Source: Escherichia coli
GTDB taxonomy: Bacteria; Pseudomonadota; Gammaproteobacteria; Enterobacterales; Enterobacteriaceae
Assembly: GCF_050320075.1 (NCBI RefSeq)
Contig: NZ_CP190018.1
Reading direction: 5' to 3' (one strand)
DNA: 64,000 nucleotides
The notes below the pieces were generated by a model. The model searched no databases. It saw only the letters and a list, made by a program, of their open reading frames with translations, and was not told the origin of the DNA. A program made the position numbers and the translations under genes. This document shows, one piece after another, positions 9,961-38,985 of this stretch (its first letter is position 1; the number at the start of each line of letters is the position of its first letter).

Positions 9961-11209
9961 GAGTTCCCCGCGCCAGCGGGGATAAACCGTTTGCTGAGTG
10001 TGCATACACACTTGAACATCAGAGTTCCCCGCGCCAGCGGGGATAAACCGCTATCAGTAACAACCTGGTAAATATCGGTTTTGAGTTCCCCGCGCCAGCG
10101 GGGATAAACCGTTTTCGGGGCCATAAATGGCGCTCATTTATGTGAGTTCCCCGCGCCAGCGGGGATAAACCGGGAAAATAAACGCGTTATTCCTTGATGG
10201 GTGCGAGTTCCCCGCGCCAGCGGGGATAAACCGAGCAACAGGTATTTCATATGGCCTGCCGTGCTGAGTTCCCCGCGCCAGCGGGGATAAACCGGCCAGC
10301 GGCGCTGAGTACGACGACCTGATTAAGAGTTCCCCGCGCCAGCGGGGATAAACCGTCAATACAACAGCAATGCTGGAGCTGGAAAAAGAGTTCCCCGCGC
10401 CAGCGGGGATAAACCGTGGTGGGATAGCTGCTCTGCCAGCGTGTCGCGGAGTTCCCCGCGCCAGCGGGGATAAACCGTGGGCGCAGCTCATGTATTCCAA
10501 TAAGGATATGAGTTCCCCGCGCCAGCGGGGATAAACCGAGATTCGCGCAATGTACGGTAAAGACAGCACCGAGTTCCCCGCGCCAGCGGGGATAAACCGC
10601 CATTCTTGTTGTCGTTCATCAAGCGCAGGGGGAGTTTCCCGCGCCAGCGGGGATAAACCGTTTGTTTTGATGATTTATCAGTATATGAATTGGAGTTCCC
10701 CGCGCCAGCGGGGATAAACCGATTTTTGCGCGGCCTGCATGAAACCAGTGGCAAAGTTCCCCGCGCCAGCGGGGATAAACCGGTACCGTTGAGCAATGGT
10801 GGGTAAATGGTGCTGAGTTCCCCGCGCCAGCGGGGATAAACCGATTTAGATACGGCACACAGGAATGCGCTGGATGAGTTCCCCGCGCCAGCGGGGATAA
10901 ACCGCATGGGAGTCCAGATTACAAATTCCAGAATGGGAGTTCCCCGCGCCAGCGGGGATAAACCGCGCCAGTCTGAGGTTTTCCGGTCATACATCGTGAG
11001 TTCCCCGCGCCAGCGGGGATAAACCGACCGTTGCTACACATATGATCAGGCATGTGCCGAGTTCCCCGCGCCAGCGGGGATAAACCGGACGATGAGACGC
11101 CCTGGTGTGCCGCGTTCGTGAGTTCCCCGCGCCAGCGGGGATAAACCGCGTTTAGCTCCGCAATGTTGGATATCACTGATGAGTTCCCCGCACCAGCGGG
11201 AATAAACCA
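9961..11209 (+). CRISPR. CRISPR array A: 21 repeats of 29 bp (gagttccccgcgccagcggggataaaccg) and 20 spacers of 32 bp; terminal repeat degenerate
   Basis: exact 61-bp periodicity with repeat starts at 9961, 10022, 10083 ... 11120, 11181; variant repeats at 10632 (gagtttccc) and 10754 (aagttcc); last repeat gagttccccgcaccagcgggaataaaccac. Confidence 0.98.
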
Positions 11210-11680: not shown

Positions 11681-11800
11681 GGGATAAACCGAACTAGTTA
11701 AAGTTTTTATTATGTTCCCTGCATCAGCGGGGATAAACCGGACTTGTTATCATTTTTTAAGTTGTCGAACTTATGTTCCCCGCGCCAGCGGGGATAACCA
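11681..11800 (+). CRISPR. degenerate CRISPR remnant: one 3' partial repeat plus two decayed repeats, no recognisable leader
   Basis: gggataaaccg at 11681..11691; atgttccctgcatcagcggggataaaccg at 11712..11740; atgttccccgcgccagcggggataacca at 11773..11800, with a 32-bp spacer between the last two. Confidence 0.75.
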
Positions 11801-11846
11801 TTCAGGTATGTTCAGGCCGGGCAGTTTCCCGCCCGGTCTTCCTCAC

Positions 11847-29341: not shown

Positions 29342-29494
29342 ATGCTGACAAAATATGCCCTTGTGGCAATCATCGTACTGTGTTGTACAGTACTGGGATT
29401 CACGCTGATGGTAGGCGACTCGTTGTGTGAGTTGAGTATCAGAGAACGTGGTATGGAGTTTAAGGCAGTTCTCGCTTACGAATCGAAGAAGTAG
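29342..29494 (+). CDS. hokX: Hok/Gef-family type I toxin peptide (50 aa), hokX-like
   Basis: [50 protein letters not shown]: N-terminal TM helix plus the Hok C-terminal pattern; below the ORF-track size cutoff; GC hairpin follows the stop. Confidence 0.8.
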
Positions 29495-29688: not shown

Positions 29689-32388
29689 ATGCGTAAATAT
29701 CCTTTAAGTTTACTGAAGGATAAAAATATTGTGACTTTTTTTGATTTCTGGGGAAAAACCCGACGCGGCGAGAAAGACGGGGGCGACGACTATCACCTTC
29801 TTTGCTGGCATTCGCTGGATGTAGCCGCGATGGGCTATTTAATGGTTAAAAGCAATTGCTTCGGGCTGACTGACTATTTTCGTCAACTAGGTTTCGCTGA
29901 TACGGAGCAGGCAGCACAATTTTTCGCCTGGCTATTGTGCTGGCACGATACTGGAAAATTTGCCCGCTCTTTTCAGCAACTTTACCTGCACCCACAACTC
30001 AAGGTTCCGGAAGGCGCAAGAAAGAATTACGAAAAGATCTCTCATTCAACGCTGGGCTACTGGCTGTGGCATCATTATTTAAGTGAATACGAAGAATTGC
30101 TTCCTTCATCTTCACTCTCTCCGCGCAAACTTAAACGGGTGATGGAGATGTGGATGCCCATGACTACCGGGCATCATGGTCGGCCCCCTGACCGTATTGA
30201 TGAACTGGATAATTTTCTGCCTGAAGACAAAGCTGCCGCACGAGATTTTCTCCTTGAAATCAAGGTACTGTTTCCGCTCATCGAGATCCCCGCATTCTGG
30301 GATGATGACGAGGGCATTGAACTTTTAAAACAACTTTCCTGGTATATCTCTGCAACCGTCGTACTCGCAGACTGGACGGGATCGTCAACGCGGTTTTTTC
30401 CACGCGTTGCACAGGCAATGGATATTAAAGATTACTGGCAGAAGGCTTTAGTTCAGGCTCAAAACGCCTTAACCGTCTTTCCTCCAAAAGCACAAACCGC
30501 GCCTTTCACCGGAATTAATACGCTGTTTCCTTTTATTGAGCACCCGACACCGTTACAGCAAAAGGTGCTGGATCTGGATATCAGCCAGCCTGGGCCACAG
30601 TTATTTATTCTGGAGGATGTGACTGGCGCAGGTAAAACAGAAGCGGCGCTTATCCTGGCCCACAGGTTGATGGCTGCGGGGAAAGCACAGGGTTTGTTTT
30701 TTGGCCTGCCAACAATGGCAACGGCCAATGCCATGTACGATCGGCTGGTAAAAACCTGGCTTGCTTTCTATTCGCCAGAATCCCGCCCCAGCCTGGTGCT
30801 GGCACACAGTGCCCGCACATTAATGGACCGCTTTAATGAATCACTCTGGTCCGGTGATTTAGTCGGGTCAGAAGAACCGGATGAACAAGCGTTCAGTCAG
30901 GGATGTGCGGCCTGGTTTGCCGACAGTAACAAGAAGGCGTTGCTGGCTGAAATTGGCGTCGGCACGCTGGATCAGGCGATGATGGCGGTGATGCCGTTTA
31001 AACATAATAATCTGCGGCTTCTGGGACTGAGTAACAAAATCCTGCTGGCTGATGAGATCCATGCCTGTGACGCTTACATGTCGTGCATTCTTGAAGGATT
31101 GATTGAGCGGCAGGCGCGTGGAGGAAACAGCGTTATTTTGCTTTCTGCCACGTTATCTCAACAGCAGCGCGACAAACTCGTTGCTGCCTTTGCGCGTGGT
31201 GCAGAGGGCCAGCAAGAAGCTCCGTTCCTGGAAAAGGATGATTACCCCTGGCTGACGCACGTTACGAAATCGGATGTGCATTCACACCGGGTAGCAACGC
31301 GCAAAGACGTTGAGCGTAGCGTGAGCGTGGGTTGGCTTCATAGCGAACAAGAATGTATTGCGCGTATCGAATCGGCAGTAAGTCAGGGGAAATGCATCGC
31401 CTGGATCCGGAATTCTGTCGATGACGCTATTAAGGTTTATCGTCAGTTGCTTGCCCGCGGCGTCATTCCTGCTTCCAGCCTTTCTCTGTTTCATAGCCGC
31501 TTTGCTTTTAGCGATCGCCAGCGAATTGAAACGGAAACGCTGGCACGCTTCGGTAAAAGTTGTAGTTTACAGAGATCATCGCAAGTCATTGTTTGTACAC
31601 AAGTAATTGAACAAAGTGTGGATATTGACCTGGACGAAATGATATCCGACCTGGCCCCTGTTGATTTGCTGATCCAACGGGCGGGGCGATTACAGCGGCA
31701 TATCCGCGATATTAATGGTCAGTTAAAGCGTGACGGAAAAGACGAGCGTTCCCCTCCTGAATTGCTGATTCTGGCCCCCGTCTGGGACGACGCTCCAGGT
31801 GACGAATGGTTCGGCAGTGCCATGCGTAACAGTGCATATGTCTATCCCGATCATGGACGAATCTGGCTGACGCAGCGTGTACTGCGTGAGCAAGGCGCGA
31901 TTCAAATGCCACACGCAGCCCGCCTTCTTATTGAATCAGTCTACGGTGAGGACGTGGTAATGCCGGAAGGATTTGCCCGCAGCGAGCAGGAACAAGTGGG
32001 CAAATATTACTGCGATCGCGCAATGGCTAAAAAGTTTGTGCTGAACTTCAGGCCCGGCTATGCCGCCAATATCAACGATTACCTCCCGGAAAAACTGTCG
32101 ACACGTCTGGCTGAGGAGTCTGTTTCCCTGTGGCTGTCTACCTGTATTGCCGGTGTGGTGAAGCCTTATGCCAACGGTGCTCACGCATGGGAAATGAGCG
32201 TTGTCAGAGTGCGTCGAAGCTGGTGGAAAAAACATCGGGATGAGTTTTCTTTACTGGAAGGGGATGCGTTCAGGCAGTGGTGCATTGAACAGCGGCAAGA
32301 GCCGGAGATGGCAAACGTGATTTTAGTCACCGATGACGAAAGTTGCGGGTATTCGGCTATGGAAGGATTGACTGGCAAGGTTGGTTGA
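29689..32388 (+). CDS. cas3: Cas3 HD-nuclease/helicase, type I-E
   Basis: 899-aa ORF; N-terminal HD domain, Walker A (EDVTGAGKTEAA), DEIH box (LLADEIHACD); heads the cas operon. Confidence 0.93.
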   Translation: MRKYPLSLLKDKNIVTFFDFWGKTRRGEKDGGDDYHLLCWHSLDVAAMGYLMVKSNCFGLTDYFRQLGFADTEQAAQFFAWLLCWHDTGKFARSFQQLYLHPQLKVPEGARKNYEKISHSTLGYWLWHHYLSEYEELLPSSSLSPRKLKRVMEMWMPMTTGHHGRPPDRIDELDNFLPEDKAAARDFLLEIKVLFPLIEIPAFWDDDEGIELLKQLSWYISATVVLADWTGSSTRFFPRVAQAMDIKDYWQKALVQAQNALTVFPPKAQTAPFTGINTLFPFIEHPTPLQQKVLDLDISQPGPQLFILEDVTGAGKTEAALILAHRLMAAGKAQGLFFGLPTMATANAMYDRLVKTWLAFYSPESRPSLVLAHSARTLMDRFNESLWSGDLVGSEEPDEQAFSQGCAAWFADSNKKALLAEIGVGTLDQAMMAVMPFKHNNLRLLGLSNKILLADEIHACDAYMSCILEGLIERQARGGNSVILLSATLSQQQRDKLVAAFARGAEGQQEAPFLEKDDYPWLTHVTKSDVHSHRVATRKDVERSVSVGWLHSEQECIARIESAVSQGKCIAWIRNSVDDAIKVYRQLLARGVIPASSLSLFHSRFAFSDRQRIETETLARFGKSCSLQRSSQVIVCTQVIEQSVDIDLDEMISDLAPVDLLIQRAGRLQRHIRDINGQLKRDGKDERSPPELLILAPVWDDAPGDEWFGSAMRNSAYVYPDHGRIWLTQRVLREQGAIQMPHAARLLIESVYGEDVVMPEGFARSEQEQVGKYYCDRAMAKKFVLNFRPGYAANINDYLPEKLSTRLAEESVSLWLSTCIAGVVKPYANGAHAWEMSVVRVRRSWWKKHRDEFSLLEGDAFRQWCIEQRQEPEMANVILVTDDESCGYSAMEGLTGKVG

Positions 32389-32485
32389 GATGCCTGCGAC
32401 AGGGCTCTCTGAATAGTTGATACACCGAAAAGGATGGAATGATGGACAACCGACCAGGGATGGTCTTTTTTACGAGAGGATGCGT

Positions 32486-34048
32486 ATGAACTCGTTTTCA
32501 CTTCTGACAACCCCGTGGTTGCCCGTTCGTTATAAAGACGGAACGACAGGCAAACTGGCGCCAGTCGATCTGGCGGATGAAAATGTTGTCGATATCGCTG
32601 CGCCGCGGGCAGATCTCCAGGGGGCGGCATGGCAGTTTTTGCTGGGACTATTACAAACCAGCTTCGCGCCAAAAGATCAACGTCGTTGGGATGATATCTG
32701 GGAAGACGGACTGGAAGCTGAAAAGCTACGGGAAGCATTGCTGTCATTAGACCATGCTTTCCAGTTCGGGCCAGATTCACCTTCATTTATGCAGGATTTT
32801 GAGGCGCTCACGGGAGATAAAGTTCCGGTCGCTTCGCTACTGCCTGAGATTCCCGGCGTTCAAACAACAAAGTTTAATAAAGACCACTTTATCAAGCGTG
32901 GTGTAACGGAACACCTGTGCCCACAGTGTTCTGCACTAGCCTTGTTCTCTCTACAGTTAAATGCGCCGTCAGGTGGCAAAGGCTATCGCACCGGCTTACG
33001 CGGCGGTGGGCCGATGACCACGCTGATTGAATTACAGGAATATCAGGGCAATCAACAAACTCCCTTGTGGCGCAAACTATGGCTCAACGTGATGCCGCAG
33101 GATGAAGCCGACTTACCGCTACCCAAAAAATTTGACGATCTGATTTTCCCCTGGCTAGGCCCGACGCGTACCAGCGAACTGGCCGGTGCGGTGGTAACCC
33201 ATGATCAGGTCAATAAACTCCAGGCGTACTGGGGAATGCCGCGGCGTATACGTATTGATTTTAATACCACGACAGTCGGCAACTGCGATATTTGCGACGA
33301 GCAGAACGACGCGCTCCTGAGCCTGATGACGACCAAAAATTATGGTGCCAATTATGCCATGTGGCAGCATCCCTTAACGCCTTACCGTGTACCACTTAAA
33401 GAGGGGGGCGAGTTTTACTCCGTTAAACCACAACCGGGCGGTTTAATCTGGCGCGACTGGTTAGGCCTTATCGAAACGGGTAAATCAGAAAACAATACGG
33501 AACTTCCCGCGCTGGTGGTGAAACTCTTTAATGCCAGCAGTCTGAAACAGGCAAAAGTGGGCCTATGGGGATTTGGTTATGATTTTGACAACATGAAAGC
33601 GCGCTGTTGGTACGAACACCATTTCCCGCTACTGCTCAATAAAAAAGAAGGCCAGATACCGAAGCTGCGGCTGGCTGCGCAAACGGCTTCACGGATTCTG
33701 AGTCTGTTACGGAGTGCATTGAAAGAAGCATGGTTCTCCGATCCAAAAGGTGCAAGGGGTGATTTCAGTTTTGTGGATATCGACTTCTGGAACAAAACTC
33801 AGCATCGCTTCCTGAGGTTAGTGCGCCAAATTGAAGAAGGTCAGGATGCGGATGAATTACTCGGCAAATGGCAAAAGGAAATTTGGTTATTCGCGCGTCA
33901 GGATTTTGACGAGCGTGTATTCACTAATCCTTATGAGCCCGTTGATTTGAAACGCGTCATGACCGCGCGCAAGAAATATTTTACAACATCGGCGGAGAAG
34001 CAAAGTGCTAAAGCCGCCAGGGAGAAAAAGCAGGAGGCTGCTGAATGA
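32486..34048 (+). CDS. cse1: Cse1/CasA (Cas8e) large Cascade subunit; start taken at MNSFSLLTTPWLP (ORF opens at 32417)
   Basis: position between cas3 and cse2; about 520 aa; N-terminus aligns by eye with the CasA N-terminal pattern. Confidence 0.85.
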   Translation: MNSFSLLTTPWLPVRYKDGTTGKLAPVDLADENVVDIAAPRADLQGAAWQFLLGLLQTSFAPKDQRRWDDIWEDGLEAEKLREALLSLDHAFQFGPDSPSFMQDFEALTGDKVPVASLLPEIPGVQTTKFNKDHFIKRGVTEHLCPQCSALALFSLQLNAPSGGKGYRTGLRGGGPMTTLIELQEYQGNQQTPLWRKLWLNVMPQDEADLPLPKKFDDLIFPWLGPTRTSELAGAVVTHDQVNKLQAYWGMPRRIRIDFNTTTVGNCDICDEQNDALLSLMTTKNYGANYAMWQHPLTPYRVPLKEGGEFYSVKPQPGGLIWRDWLGLIETGKSENNTELPALVVKLFNASSLKQAKVGLWGFGYDFDNMKARCWYEHHFPLLLNKKEGQIPKLRLAAQTASRILSLLRSALKEAWFSDPKGARGDFSFVDIDFWNKTQHRFLRLVRQIEEGQDADELLGKWQKEIWLFARQDFDERVFTNPYEPVDLKRVMTARKKYFTTSAEKQSAKAAREKKQEAAE

Positions 34049-34581
34049 GTATTGTAAAAGAGGAGCACAAAGCCACGCTGCGTAAATGGCACGAAGAGTT
34101 GCAGGAAAAACGCGGCAATCGTGCCAGTCTGCGGCGTAGCACAACGGTTAATGATGTTTGTCTGTCAGAAGGGTTTCGTTCTCTGCTGATGCAGACCCAC
34201 ACTTTGTGGAAAATTGAAGCACAAGAGTGGCGTTTTACCGCACTGGCGCTGGTCGCCGCAGTTAGCGCCAATGTTAAAGCTATTGATGAACGGCAGCCTT
34301 TTGCCGCGCAGCTGGCGGCGGTAATGTCGGAGGGGCGTTTTACTCGCCTGTCGGCAGTAAAAACGCCTGATGATTTACTGCGTCAGTTACGTCGCGCGGT
34401 CAAATTATTAAATGGTTCCGTCAATCTTATCTCTTTGGCAGAAGATATTTTCCGCTGGTGCCAGGAGAGCGACGACCTGCTCAATCATCACCGCCGCCAG
34501 CAGCGGCCAACAGAATTTATCCGTATCCGCTGGGCGCTGGAATATTACCAGGCTGGCGACGCCGATAACGAACAAAATTAA
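34045..34581 (+). CDS. cse2: Cse2/CasB small Cascade subunit
   Basis: 178-aa ORF overlapping the cse1 stop by 4 bp; Arg-rich helical protein in the expected operon position. Confidence 0.85.
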   Translation: MSIVKEEHKATLRKWHEELQEKRGNRASLRRSTTVNDVCLSEGFRSLLMQTHTLWKIEAQEWRFTALALVAAVSANVKAIDERQPFAAQLAAVMSEGRFTRLSAVKTPDDLLRQLRRAVKLLNGSVNLISLAEDIFRWCQESDDLLNHHRRQQRPTEFIRIRWALEYYQAGDADNEQN

Positions 34582-34595
34582 TAAAGGACTATCTC

Positions 34596-35651
34596 ATGAC
34601 GACATTTATTCAGCTTCATTTGTTAACCGCTTACCCTGCTGCCAACCTTAACCGTGATGACACCGGTGCGCCAAAAACTGTGGTACTGGGTGGAGCAACG
34701 CGTCTGCGCGTTTCCTCACAAAGTCTGAAACGTGCGTGGCGCACTTCTGCACTTTTTGAACAGGCACTGGCGGGCCATATTGGTATTCGCAGTGGGCGTA
34801 TTGCGCGTGAGGCGGCAACTATCCTGATTGAGAAAGGCATCGAAGAGAAAAAAGCCATCGAATGGGCGGCAAAAATTGCGGATTATCTTGGGAAAGCTAA
34901 AAACGACAAAAAACCAAAAGATCCGCTCACTAACGCCGAAACTGAACAGCTAGTCCATATCAGCCCGGCAGAATTTGACGCCGTAAAAGCGCTGGCCCAT
35001 CAACTGGCCGAAGAAAAGCGCGCGCCAAAAGAGGAAGATCTCGCTTTGTTACGTAAAGATCGCATGGCGGTAGATATCGCTATGTTTGGTCGTATGCTGG
35101 CGAATAAACCCGAATTTAATGTTGAAGCCGCCTGCCAGGTCGCGCATGCATTTGGTGTCAGTGAAACGATTGTCGAAGATGATTTTTTCACCGCCGTTGA
35201 TGATTTGCGCCAGGCTTCTGAAGATGCCGGTGCCGGGCATCTTGGTGAAACCGGATTCGGTTCTGCGCTGTTCTACACCTATATCTGCATCGATAAAGAT
35301 CTGCTGGTCGAAAACCTCGGCGGTGACGAAGCGTTAGCTAATCAGACCTTGCGCGCCTTTACGGAAGCCGCACTTAAAGTCTCCCCAACCGGCAAACAGA
35401 ACAGCTTTGCCAGCCGTGCCTACGCCTCCTGGGCGCTGGCAGAAAAAGGCACTGAACAACCACGCTCTCTGGCGGCGGCTTTCTATGAACCCATTAATGG
35501 CACCCGGCAGTTAGATGTGGCGGTGCAGCGTATTACAACGCTTCGCGAAAATATGAATACGGTCTATGAACAGAAGACCGAATGCGCAAGCTTTGACGTG
35601 ATGAACAAACAGGGAAGCATGAAGGACGTGCTGGACTTTATCTGCGCGTAA
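34596..35651 (+). CDS. cas7: Cas7/CasC Cascade backbone subunit
   Basis: 351-aa ORF MTTFIQLHLLTAYPAANLNRDDTG... (RAMP-like N-terminus); operon position. Confidence 0.88.
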   Translation: MTTFIQLHLLTAYPAANLNRDDTGAPKTVVLGGATRLRVSSQSLKRAWRTSALFEQALAGHIGIRSGRIAREAATILIEKGIEEKKAIEWAAKIADYLGKAKNDKKPKDPLTNAETEQLVHISPAEFDAVKALAHQLAEEKRAPKEEDLALLRKDRMAVDIAMFGRMLANKPEFNVEAACQVAHAFGVSETIVEDDFFTAVDDLRQASEDAGAGHLGETGFGSALFYTYICIDKDLLVENLGGDEALANQTLRAFTEAALKVSPTGKQNSFASRAYASWALAEKGTEQPRSLAAAFYEPINGTRQLDVAVQRITTLRENMNTVYEQKTECASFDVMNKQGSMKDVLDFICA

Positions 35652-35661
35652 GGGGCGGCTA

Positions 35662-36408
35662 ATGAGCCAATATTTGATTTTTCAGCTTCATGGGCCAATG
35701 GCATCCTGGGGCGTCGATGCCCCCGGCGAAGTGCGTCATACCCATGAACTGCCTTCGCGCTCAGCATTGCTGGGGCTGCTGGCTGCCGGGGTAGGGATTC
35801 GGCGTGATGATACCGAACGATTAAACGCGTTTAACAGCCACTATTCACTGGTGGTTTGCGCCAGCCGTAACCCGCGCTGGGCACGGGATTATCACACGGT
35901 CCAGATGCCAAAAGAGGTGCGTAAAGCGCGTTATTTCAGCCGTCGCGAAGAGTTGAGCGCCCCTGATCTTCTGAGCGCGATTATCTCCCGGCGCGACTAC
36001 TACACCGATGCCTGGTGGATGGTGGCGGTGGCAACAACCCCCGATGCGCCTTACAGGCTTGAACAGTTGCAGGACGGTTTACGTCATCCGGTTTTTCCGC
36101 TTTATCTGGGGCGAAAAAGTCATCCGCTGGCGTTACCACTTGCGCCGTTACTGCTCGAAGGCAACGCGTCTGATGTCTTACGTAACGCATACCAACAGTA
36201 TCAGGATAGTTTCCGCGAACTGAAAGTCTCACTCCCGAAACTTCAGGATGAATGCTGGTGGGAAGGGGAACACGACGGCCTGGTCGCGAGCAAAATATTA
36301 CGTCGCCGGGATGTTCCTTTAAATCGTCAGCAGTGGCTGTTTGGGGAACGCACCATCAATCAGGGGCCGTGGCTCAGCAAGGAGGAACCATGTACCTCTC
36401 AAGAATAA
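35662..36408 (+). CDS. cas5: Cas5/CasD Cascade subunit
   Basis: 248-aa ORF MSQYLIFQLHGPMASWG... (Cas5e N-terminal pattern); operon position. Confidence 0.88.
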   Translation: MSQYLIFQLHGPMASWGVDAPGEVRHTHELPSRSALLGLLAAGVGIRRDDTERLNAFNSHYSLVVCASRNPRWARDYHTVQMPKEVRKARYFSRREELSAPDLLSAIISRRDYYTDAWWMVAVATTPDAPYRLEQLQDGLRHPVFPLYLGRKSHPLALPLAPLLLEGNASDVLRNAYQQYQDSFRELKVSLPKLQDECWWEGEHDGLVASKILRRRDVPLNRQQWLFGERTINQGPWLSKEEPCTSQE

Positions 36409-37036
36409 CCTTACATACCGGCCAGCTTTCGCCTGCGCAGTTGCTGCATCTGGTGGATCGCGGTGAATATGTAATGCATCAGTGGCTGTGGGATCTTTTT
36501 CCTGGCGGCAAAGAAAGGCAATTTCTTTATCGTCGGGAAGAACTCCAGGGGGCGTTTCGCTTTTTTGTCCTGTCGCAGGAACGCCCGGCGGAAAGTGATA
36601 TTTTCACCATCGAATGCCGACCATTTGCGCCAGAGTTGCGTACCGGACAATCCCTTTGTTTCAACCTGCGGGCGAATCCAACAATTTGTAAAGCGGGCAA
36701 ACGCCACGACTTGCTGATGGAGGCGAAACGGCAGGTGAGGGGGCAGGTGGAAGGAAGTGATGTCTGGTTGCATCAACAACAGGCGGCGCTGGACTGGCTG
36801 GCAGCGCAGGGGGAAAGAAGCGGTTTTACACTACTGGATACCTCGGTCGATGCCTACCGACAACAGCAACTGCGGCGGGAAAACTCCCGGCAACTGATCC
36901 AGTTCAGTAGCGTGGATTATACGGGGATGCTTACGGTCACCGATCCTGGGTTATTTCTGCAACGTCTGAGCCAGGGGTATGGCAAAAGCCGCGCGTTCGG
37001 CTGTGGTCTGATGCTGATCAAACCCGGAGCAGAGGC

Positions 37037-37040
<4 letters not shown>
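36390..37040 (+). CDS. cas6e: Cas6e/CasE pre-crRNA endoribonuclease; start at MYLSRITL preceded by aggagg
   Basis: 216 aa; the MYLS start matches the Cas6e N-terminus as I recall it; C-terminal G-rich loop GYGKSRAFGCGLMLI; overlaps the cas5 stop. Confidence 0.88.
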
Positions 37041-38250
<1,210 letters not shown>

Positions 38251-38346
38251 GTTATCTGTTCTTTAAAAATAAGGAAATGTTTTAATTTAGTTGGTAGATT
38301 GTTGATGCGGAATAAATTTGTTTAAAAACAGTTATGTATGCTTAGT
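38251..38346 (+). promoter_or_regulatory. CRISPR leader for the cas-adjacent array B (AT-rich; agttggtagattgt motif at 38289..38302)
   Basis: AT-rich region between cas2 and the first repeat; shares motif and 58-bp spacing with the leader of array A. Confidence 0.75.
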
Positions 38347-38985
38347 GTGTTCCCCGCGTCAGCGGGGATAAACCGACAATCAGATCACGATCGATGCCTC
38401 GCGTGAGGTGTTCCCCGCGTCAGCGGGGATAAACCGATTTTCGCAGCGGGTAACCGCGCCCGGCGATCGTGTTCCCCGCGTCAGCGGGGATAAACCGTTT
38501 ATGTGGAGTATCAGTGCCTGGGTGGAAAGGTGTTCCCCGCGTCAGCGGGGATAAACCGTGGGGCTGAGCATGGCTAAACAACCGAGGCGCGTGTTCCCCG
38601 CGTCAGCGGGGATAAACCGGTCAACTGGCACCACAGGATGATGGCGGCGAAGTGTTCCCCGCGCCAGCGGGGATAAACCGCAGGTCGACCGACTGGAGGC
38701 GGAGATTGTCGGGTGTTCCCCGCGCCAGCGGGGATAAACCGTGTTGTTTTTCTGCCGGATTAACGCGGTGCGAGTGTTCCCCGCGCCAGCGGGGATAAAC
38801 CGTTGTCGGGCTTGTTCGGCGCGGGTTGTTAACTGTGTTCCCCGCGCCAGCGGGGATAAACCGCCAGCGAAGGACTTGCTCGTGTGGTTAAAGCCGTGTT
38901 CCCCGCGTCAGCGGGGATAAACCGGACGCACTGGATGCGATGATGGACATCACTTGGAGTTCCCCGCCCCTGCGGTAGAACTCCC
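38347..38985 (+). CRISPR. CRISPR array B: 11 repeats of 29 bp (gtgttccccgcg[t/c]cagcggggataaaccg), 10 spacers of 32 bp; terminal repeat degenerate
   Basis: 61-bp periodicity with repeat starts at 38347, 38408 ... 38896, 38957; last repeat gagttccccgcccctgcggtagaactccc. Confidence 0.98.

Follow-up and report, generated by a model that had tools for sequence, protein, structure and literature searches.

A type I-E CRISPR-Cas locus of the published cas-E1 variant in Escherichia coli and its comparison with the K-12 system

Gene content, leader and arrays

In this work, we analysed a window (i.e. the whole stretch of 64,000 nucleotides studied) of an Escherichia coli chromosome, in which an intact type I-E CRISPR-Cas locus lies between cysH and iap, at 29689-38985. 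According to the list of open reading frames (ORFs), the gene order is cas3, cse1, cse2, cas7, cas5, cas6e, cas1, cas2, leader and array, with all eight ORFs on the + strand. The RefSeq record of E. coli YZLc1-3 is 100 % identical over the 9,297 nt and its annotation also contains intact type I-E genes, in agreement with the initial annotation, which had described eight intact cas genes followed by a leader and an array.

The first gene, cas3 (29689..32388, 899 aa, Cas3 in RefSeq), encodes an HD nuclease and DExH helicase. An intergenic gap of 97 nt (414 nt in K-12) separates it from casA/cse1 (cas8e, 520 aa), the gene of the large Cascade subunit, placed at 32486..34048 according to the RefSeq start, the longest ORF beginning at a TTG at 32417. 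The remaining genes are casB/cse2 (small Cascade subunit; 34045..34581, 178 aa), cas7e/casC (Cascade backbone; 34596..35651, 351 aa), cas5e/casD (35662..36408, 248 aa), cas6e/casE (pre-crRNA endonuclease; 36390..37040, 216 aa), cas1e (integrase, GTG start; 37037..37960, 307 aa) and cas2e (37957..38250, 97 aa). For cas6e, the RefSeq start at 36390 (MYLSRITL...) is the correct one and the longest-ORF start at 36252 is wrong. The genes had been described as overlapping, which holds at four of the seven junctions (casA/casB, cas5/cas6e, cas6e/cas1 and cas1/cas2) and not at the other three. Upstream of cas3, a Hok/Gef family CDS (29342-29494) follows cysH, i.e. the hok-sok arrangement A, whereas K-12 retains sokX alone. 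Promoters and terminators were sought by consensus scans in the spacer between cysH and cas3, in the cas3-casA gap and in the leader, with nothing above shuffle expectation.

Downstream of cas2, a 96-nt AT-rich leader of the leader-A/L1 type (38251..38346, + strand, recognised by its sequence) adjoins the CRISPR2.1 array (38347..38985, + strand). The array comprises ten 29-nt repeats (GTGTTCCCCGCG[T/C]CAGCGGGGATAAACCG) with a 61-nt period (38347-38924; chance expectation zero), 32-nt spacers, a last spacer at 38925-38956 and a degenerate terminal repeat at 38957-38985; hairpin repeats and spacers of these lengths next to an AT-rich leader are those of a type I-E array. The last spacer and degenerate repeat are common to K-12, and this shared terminal unit corresponds to the published 'anchor' (PMC3903273). 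All ten repeats start with GTGTT (A-type) and that of K-12 with GAGTT. The repeat, previously regarded as K-12-like, differs by only 1-2 nt but does so at the diagnostic position 2. Regarding the leader, the usable rows of a cross-genus comparison were those of this locus, K-12 and E. albertii only: it is about 73 % identical to the K-12 leader and aligns closely with that of E. albertii (percentage not computed).

The window also contains CRISPR2.3 (9961..11209, + strand), a second array of the same cas genes with 21 repeats, the first being of the GAGTT type, and a CRISPR2.2 remnant of two repeats (~11712-11801). Two CRISPR2.3 spacers match temperate phages or phage-plasmids, and the PAMs of their protospacers (ATG and AAG) agree with the published E1 motif. 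None of the ten CRISPR2.1 spacers matched phages, and their apparent plasmid matches proved to be other CRISPR arrays, including mislabelled chromosomes.

Family assignment and identity as cas-E1

Family membership was assessed using curated NCBIfam type I-E HMMs with their own cut-offs, which were exceeded by all eight proteins. Cas3 scored above the cut-offs of cas3_core (224.6) and cas3_HD (88.8) and under that of the K-12-specific model PRK09694. Similarly, CasA reached 607.9 with TIGR02547 (cut-off 70) but 101 with the K-12-specific PRK09693 (cut-off 576). The other scores were 102.7 for CasB (TIGR02548, cut-off 28.5), 448 for Cas7 (TIGR01869, cut-off 178), 157.8 for Cas5 (TIGR01868, cut-off 69), 287.8 for Cas6e (TIGR01907, cut-off 45), 380.9 for Cas1 (TIGR03638, cut-off 215.6) and 131.6 for Cas2 (TIGR01873, cut-off 33). 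ORFs, RefSeq annotation and HMMs together give the gene set and order of a type I-E system, including the signature genes cse1 and cse2.

Pairwise alignments with K-12 showed that the catalytic residues of Cas3, Cas1 and Cas6e are conserved: in Cas3, the HD residues H86/D87, K316 of Walker A and the DEIH at 455-458; E141, H208 and D221 in Cas1; and H30 of Cas6e, aligned to K-12 H20 as the catalytic His. Judging from family membership, Cas6e would cleave transcripts of the array at the hairpin of the repeat, and Cse1, Cse2, Cas7, Cas5 and Cas6e would form Cascade on the crRNA. Cascade would find AWG-flanked protospacers and recruit Cas3 for DNA degradation, and Cas1-Cas2 would integrate new spacers at the leader-proximal end. 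Silencing by H-NS is common among E. coli I-E systems, as established for K-12.

The variant to which the locus belongs has already been published as cas-E1 (cas-EO, O157:H7-type); it carries leader-A and CRISPR-A repeats, and its descriptions are those of Diez-Villasenor et al. (2013, RNA Biol; PMC3737337) and Almendros et al. (2014, mBio; PMC3903273). The second I-E variant suggested by the initial annotation therefore exists, under these names. The latter study defined the E1 and E2 clusters, the L1 and L2 leaders, the hok-sok association (every strain other than those with E2 having hok sok) and the common terminal repeat/spacer, and gave mean GC contents of 53.5 % for E1 vs 45.6 % for E2. 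Per-gene GC content is 0.50-0.55 here and 0.44-0.51 in K-12, i.e. higher than in E2, and GC3 is 0.47-0.58 here vs 0.36-0.43 in K-12. Both leader-A/L1 and CRISPR-A repeats (...GGGGAACAC, i.e. GTGTTCCCC..., as defined in PMC3737337) are present; CRISPR-A and leader-A were linked to cas-EO (PMC3737337) and leader-A/L1 to cas-EO/E1 (PMC3737337, PMC3903273). A 2025 paper (PMC12736100) tabulates the same gene lengths and per-gene identities.

Sequence comparisons place the locus with the O157:H7, E. albertii and Salmonella systems and apart from K-12, in line with cas-E1, whose genes are known to group with the former three and apart from K-12 and E. fergusonii. It is 95 % identical at the nucleotide level to O157:H7 strains and shares with them and most ECOR strains the site (cysH-hok/sok-cas-CRISPR2.1-iap), gene order, gene lengths, leader-A/L1, CRISPR-A repeats, a GC content close to 50-55 % and the 'anchor' formed by the terminal repeat and spacer. 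The only differences are strain-specific spacers and a T/C polymorphism in the repeat loop, nothing substantial. Neither the close Cas3/Cascade identity nor the CRISPR-T repeats that characterise K-12 cas-E2 (cas-EK) were found. E2 carriage has also been published for E. fergusonii and Shigella dysenteriae Sd197. Among the complete genomes of E. coli (5,426), the E1 effector set occurs in 2,420 and the K-12 set in 1,115; E1 is the commoner of the two variants, by a factor of about two.

Divergence from K-12 and relatives of the locus

The locus shares subtype, gene order and chromosomal site with K-12 cas-E2/cas-EK, and the flanking CysI, Iap, CysD and CysN are 98.6-100 % identical. Aligned with MG1655 proteins, however, Cas3 (31 %), CasA (23 %), Cas7 (33 %), Cas5 (35 %) and Cas6e (31 %) have amino acid identities of only 23-35 %, and CasB (about 25 %) is barely alignable. 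Cas3, Cse1 and Cas6e had indeed been noticed as clearly unlike K-12; the comparison, which could have found Cascade and Cas3 to be as close to K-12 as Cas1 and Cas2, upheld this. In contrast, Cas1 is 84.9 % (73.9 % nt) and Cas2 85.1 % (76.4 % nt) identical to K-12, which falls short of the near-identity claimed previously, the DNA being only 74-76 % identical.

The abrupt rise in protein identity precisely where cas6e meets cas1 (about 31 % before, 85 % after), with blastn homology to K-12 starting 12 nt inside cas1, is what would be expected from a foreign interference module (cas3 to cas6e) joined at this junction to a resident K-12-like cas1-cas2-leader-repeat, and such module swaps do occur in other I-E loci. 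We consider this reading, the mosaic put forward in the initial annotation, extremely improbable. Nei-Gojobori estimates gave pS values of 0.83 (cas1) and 0.73 (cas2), i.e. saturated, vs 0.07-0.16 in the truly shared flanking genes; synonymous divergence of cas1/cas2 equals that of the Cascade genes, dS being saturated throughout. This saturation implies that cas1 and cas2 are not a segment shared with K-12, and recent recombination at the cas6e/cas1 junction was rejected for this reason. By blastn, high-identity homology to K-12 ends at 29344, in the cysH-cas3 spacer, and restarts at ~38924, at the last spacer, so that the whole block differs. Gene-specific constraint would predict a step at a gene border equally well: dN is 0.13 for cas1 and 0.14 for cas2 vs 0.69-1.0 for the other cas genes. 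The step mainly reflects a difference in constraint.

In order to place the locus among its relatives, neighbour-joining trees on corrected p-distances (not maximum likelihood) were inferred from the best 80 of 202 Cas1 matches, all with a Cas1 identity of at least 75 %. The nearest relatives and nested clades of the locus are the same for Cas1-Cas2 and for Cascade (bootstrap 84-100), which argues against the proposed breakpoint. In both trees, E1 and loci L004-L006 form a clade, joined successively by Salmonella/Klebsiella/Citrobacter, Atlantibacter and Parasutterella, with bootstrap values of 100, 98, 84 and 87 for Cas1+Cas2 and of 100 at all four nodes for Cas7+Cas5+Cas6e; the clades with E. 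albertii and Salmonella thus have values of 98-100. Additionally, at 30 sites separating the E1 clade from the K-12 Cas1 group, the locus sides with the E1 clade 27:3.

The E. albertii locus is colinear (90.8 % nt identity), every gene belonging to the same lineage with 93-99 % amino acid identity, and S. enterica diarizonae has 96 % for Cas1 and 70-86 % for Cascade and Cas3. The Salmonella, E. albertii, Klebsiella and Citrobacter I-E loci are colinear at the DNA level and have GTGTT-type repeats, the differences being ordinary species-level divergence. The locus therefore appears to be one coherent lineage, whose eight genes co-diverged with their counterparts in these four taxa.

The best explanation is very probably that of a whole-operon E1 lineage, the contrast with K-12 arising because K-12 has a different whole-operon variant (cas-E2) and the likeness of Cas1-Cas2 because of very strong purifying selection across gammaproteobacterial I-E systems. 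Cas1e and Cas2e are 75-100 % identical across the best 80 of 202 gammaproteobacterial I-E loci, whatever their Cascade lineage, a universality that is overstated since these loci were chosen as the best Cas1 matches. In K-12, cas-E2 would have replaced E1 as a whole operon, from the cysH-cas3 spacer to the old array end.

The K-12 system and proposed module exchange in the I-E family

Another possibility is that E1 and E2 are anciently diverged whole systems whose Cas1/Cas2 evolve 6-8 times more slowly than Cascade/Cas3, with no module exchange anywhere. The dN contrast under general dS saturation fits it, as does the monotonic drop of Cas1 with Cascade identity inside the E1 clade (99 % with 93-97 %, 93-96 % with 67-88 %, and 87 % with 55-73 %). 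Among the best 80 of 202 loci, however, K-12 Cas1-Cas2 shows 90-94 % identity to loci with a Cascade far from that of K-12 (about 30 % identity) and only 78-84 % to those carrying a K-12-like Cascade; pairs of loci within a genus whose Cascades are about 30 % identical have 89-96 % identity in Cas1+Cas2 (99 % for the pair L065/L068). A rate difference therefore covers most of the E1/E2 contrast and not the family-wide pattern, and we regard its strict form as very unlikely.

It is the K-12 system, and not this locus, that appears incongruent: within the same set, its Cas1-Cas2 is nearest to L016/L030/L027 (91-94 %, bootstrap 77-90) and its Cascade to L023 (68 %, bootstrap 98-100), although the contrast in Cas1-Cas2 between K-12 and loci with an E2-type Cascade involves few diagnostic sites (7:1). 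The K-12 adaptation module would belong to another enterobacterial I-E lineage and not to the relatives of its own Cascade. Since adaptation and effector modules seem to be decoupled in K-12 and elsewhere in the I-E family, the mosaic idea has merit for the family but was applied to the wrong locus.

A broader scheme, which we propose only tentatively and hold to be rather doubtful, is that gammaproteobacterial I-E systems combine a near-frozen cas1-cas2-leader-repeat tending to follow the host lineage with at least two ancient Cas3/Cascade cassettes (~30 % identical) repeatedly swapped ahead of cas1, K-12 being a chimera in which an E2-type Cascade is combined with an adaptation module from a third enterobacterial I-E lineage. 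Module shuffling as a general principle is textbook knowledge (PMC6452270), and a literature search for adaptation/effector decoupling inside I-E retrieved this general principle alone; the within-subtype pattern and the K-12 chimerism may be new to the literature.

As a discovery, the locus itself matters little. It underlines that, for CRISPR biology in E. coli, the K-12 reference is not a typical one, given that the E1 effector proteins are so distant from the well-studied K-12 ones and that the published acquisition motif of E1 is broader (CWT vs CTT for K-12; PMC3737337). Very different Cascade lineages share an almost identical repeat and closely alike Cas1-Cas2, which would explain the interchangeability of the modules and is a useful background for engineering or typing I-E systems of both Cascade lineages. 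Repeat type was discarded as a marker of Cascade lineage: GTGTT occurs with E1-like, E2-like and third-lineage Cascades, the GAGTT of K-12 being the exception.

The I-E locus and its assignment to a published variant

At 29689-38985, eight ORFs on the + strand precede an AT-rich leader and an array with a 61-nt period. Over 9,297 nt the region matches the E. coli YZLc1-3 chromosome at 100 % identity, and the RefSeq annotation of that chromosome gives cas3, casA, casB, cas7e, cas5e, cas6e, cas1e, cas2e and a CRISPR, with cysJIH and a Hok/Gef gene to one side and iap-cysDN to the other. All eight proteins passed the curated NCBIfam type I-E cut-offs, and catalytic residues are conserved in Cas3 (H86/D87, K316, DEIH 455-458), Cas1 (E141/H208/D221) and Cas6e (the His aligned with H20 of K-12). 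The initial annotation of eight intact genes with leader and array stands, except that the genes, described as overlapping, do so at only four of the seven junctions. The start of cas6e lies at 36390 (216 aa) and that of casA, following RefSeq, at 32486.

Two E. coli cas-E variants were defined by Almendros et al. 2014 (PMC3903273): E1, found in most strains and clustering with Salmonella and E. albertii, and E2, found in K-12, some group A strains and E. fergusonii. The names cas-EO and cas-EK, respectively, come from Diez-Villasenor et al. 2013 (PMC3737337), who linked the former to CRISPR-A/leader-A and the motif CWT for acquisition, and the latter to CRISPR-T/leader-T and CTT. On every testable criterion the window locus is E1, i.e. 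95 % nucleotide identity to O157:H7, GTGTT-type array repeats, hok at 29342-29494 (hok-sok accompanies every arrangement but E2; PMC3903273) and a per-gene GC of 0.50-0.55, higher than the 0.44-0.51 of K-12. Gene lengths are exactly those tabulated in a 2025 survey (2700/1563/537/1056/747/651/924/294 bp; PMC12736100), which also reports inter-variant protein identities of 29-32 % for Cas3, Cas7, Cas5 and Cas6, 23 % for CasA, none for CasB, 84 % for Cas1 and 86 % for Cas2. The second I-E variant suspected initially was thus rightly recognized and is the long-known E1; both the locus and its contrast with K-12 are already known. Of 5,426 complete E. coli genomes, 2,420 carry the E1 effector block (coverage of at least 80 %) and 1,115 that of K-12. 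K-12 is the unusual one of the two variants.

Comparison with K-12 and coherence of the window locus

The K-12 MG1655 locus was retrieved and its proteins were aligned gene by gene with those of the window. Identity was 31 % for Cas3, 23 % for CasA, about 25 % for the barely alignable CasB, 33 % for Cas7, 35 % for Cas5 and 31 % for Cas6e, against 84.9 % for Cas1 and 85.1 % for Cas2; the flanking CysI, Iap, CysD and CysN are 98.6-100 % identical. The contrast between divergent effectors and far closer Cas1/Cas2 is real, but "near-identical" overstated a likeness that holds for the proteins, the DNA being only 74 % and 76 % identical. Likewise, the repeat, taken as K-12-like, begins with GTGTT in the window but with GAGTT in K-12, a difference at the diagnostic second position, and the leaders share about 73 % identity. 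The cas3-casA gap (32389-32485) is only 97 nt long, with a weak hairpin and T-run at 32452-32465, versus 414 nt in K-12, whose gap contains the Pcas promoter under H-NS control; the two variants probably differ in transcriptional organisation. Between cysH and cas3, the window has the Hok/Gef toxin gene, whereas K-12 keeps sokX alone.

This contrast had been read as a mosaic, i.e. a divergent interference module joined to a K-12-like adaptation module. Between window and K-12, however, cas1 and cas2 are as saturated at synonymous sites (pS 0.83 and 0.73) as the Cascade genes (0.74-0.86), whereas flanking genes truly shared with K-12 show pS of 0.07-0.16; dN alone sets cas1/cas2 apart (0.13-0.14, versus 0.69-1.0 for the other cas genes). 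The 97 % homology to K-12 stops at 29344, i.e. at the hok start, and high identity returns only at the last spacer (~38924). Between these points there is only about 70 % homology, starting 12 nt into cas1, so that the whole cassette, including cas1-cas2-leader, differs from K-12. Furthermore, among the best 80 of 202 Cas1 matches, Cas1+Cas2 and Cas7+Cas5+Cas6e of the window have the same nearest neighbours, and both trees (neighbour-joining only) show identical nested clades around it: with E. albertii, Escherichia sp. MOD1-EC7003 and Pseudocitrobacter (bootstrap 100 and 100, respectively), then adding Salmonella, Klebsiella, Citrobacter, Phytobacter and Intestinirhabdus (98 and 100), Atlantibacter (84 and 100) and Parasutterella (87 and 100). 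The window DNA is colinear with that of E. albertii at 90.8 % and of Salmonella at 68-75 %. Synonymous saturation, homology extent and congruent trees contradict the mosaic reading, which is wrong for this locus.

Module decoupling and the K-12 system

The comparison set consisted of I-E loci from GTDB species representatives (best 80 of 202 Cas1 matches), and is biased towards conserved Cas1. In all 80 loci, which include Marinomonas, Methylophaga, Shewanella, Bordetella and Parasutterella, Cas1e and Cas2e share 75-100 % identity with those of both E. coli variants, irrespective of Cascade lineage. Where two loci share less than 35 % Cascade identity (1,004 pairs), median Cas1+Cas2 identity is 78 %, with extremes of 70 % and 99 %; E1 and K-12 share 85.2 %, which places this pair near the 95th percentile. 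Four same-genus or closely related pairs are strongly decoupled (Cas1+Cas2 and Cascade identity, respectively): Marinomonas L037/L040 (95.7 % and 31.7 %), Oceanospirillum L028/L035 (93.2 % and 28.8 %), Methylophaga L049/L055 (89.6 % and 31.5 %) and L065/L068 (99.0 % and 31.1 %). These values suggest that the Cas3/Cascade cassette has been replaced repeatedly, sometimes recently, beside a conserved adaptation module. Modules are presumably interchangeable because the GTGTT repeat is common to loci of all Cascade lineages, and it is well established that CRISPR modules evolve semi-independently (PMC6452270).

The incongruent system is that of K-12, not that of the window. In the neighbour-joining trees of the same best 80 of 202 Cas1 matches, the K-12 Cascade is nearest to that of Citrobacter amalonaticus L023 (68 % identity, bootstrap 98), within a 13-taxon E2-type clade (bootstrap 100), while L023 Cas1-Cas2 are only 84 % identical to those of K-12. 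Cas1-Cas2 of the K-12 locus (L001, 8570-9773) were compared with those of L016, L030, L027, L024 and L023; the nearest are L016, L030 and L027 (91-94 %, bootstrap 77-90), in a 12-taxon Enterobacterales group (bootstrap 80) including MAGs labelled Enterobacteriaceae or Erwinia, and the Cascades of this clade are only about 30 % identical to that of K-12. The affinity spans the full Cas1-Cas2 length, diagnostic sites favouring this clade over the E1 clade by 28:2 and over loci with E2-type Cascade by 7:1, and nucleotide homology of K-12 with these loci begins exactly at the cas1 start codon. These comparisons make the model system of K-12 look chimeric, with contributions from two I-E lineages. 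According to an earlier proposal, E1 was replaced when E2, together with a leader of its own (L2) and one repeat or more, inserted at the array; the terminal degenerate repeat and spacer are common to both (PMC3903273). In the part of the literature covered, no explicit statement of the within-I-E decoupling pattern or of K-12 chimerism was found.

Parasutterella excrementihominis L069 (Betaproteobacteria) carries an I-E system that both trees place, as a whole, with the E1 clade of E. coli and Salmonella, which suggests that a complete system moved between classes of gut bacteria. Two short contigs of non-proteobacterial MAGs, L003 ('Bacillota bacterium') and L076 ('Collinsella sp.'), with Cas proteins 97-100 % identical to the window set, are most likely mis-binned E. 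coli.

Predicted working and arrays

The cas gene set of the window is intact and the catalytic residues are conserved; a repeat hairpin and a leader are also present. By family membership, Cas6e would process array transcripts, Cascade (Cse1, Cse2, Cas7, Cas5, Cas6e) would bind crRNA and AWG-flanked targets, Cas3 would degrade the target and Cas1-Cas2 would integrate spacers at the leader-proximal end. A further I-E array, CRISPR2.3 (9961-11209, 21 repeats), near which lies a two-repeat remnant, CRISPR2.2 (about 11712-11801), would use this protein set too. The newest, leader-proximal spacer of CRISPR2.3 (9990-10021) matches the 110-kb E. coli plasmid p009_B (NZ_CP048306) at 32/32 positions and phage D6 and P22-like eaE at 31/32, with an ATG PAM; the fifth (10234-10265) matches phiV10/HK629 at 30/32, with an AAG PAM. 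ATG (= CAT) is typical of E1 and is not taken up by K-12 Cas1-Cas2 (PMC3737337). In CRISPR2.3, GAGTT ('K-12/T' type) opens the first repeat, which was checked, and the degenerate last repeat, whereas the cas-adjoining array uses GTGTT; the remaining repeats were matched on the 27-nt core alone, which excludes the first two bases. If these also begin with GAGTT, one Cas6e/Cascade set would serve both repeat types in this strain.

The cas-adjoining array, CRISPR2.1, has 10 full repeats and a degenerate terminal one at 38957-38985. Its full repeats (38347-38924) are polymorphic in the loop, the five leader-proximal ones and the oldest being GCGTCAGC and repeats 6-9 being GCGCCAGC. Since new repeats copy the first one, the block with T may stem from successive acquisitions after a C-to-T change or from array recombination. 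The region of spacers 2-10 matches a 293-kb E. coli plasmid record (NZ_LC542972.1, 246388-246968, match H56), apparently a plasmid-borne CRISPR array.
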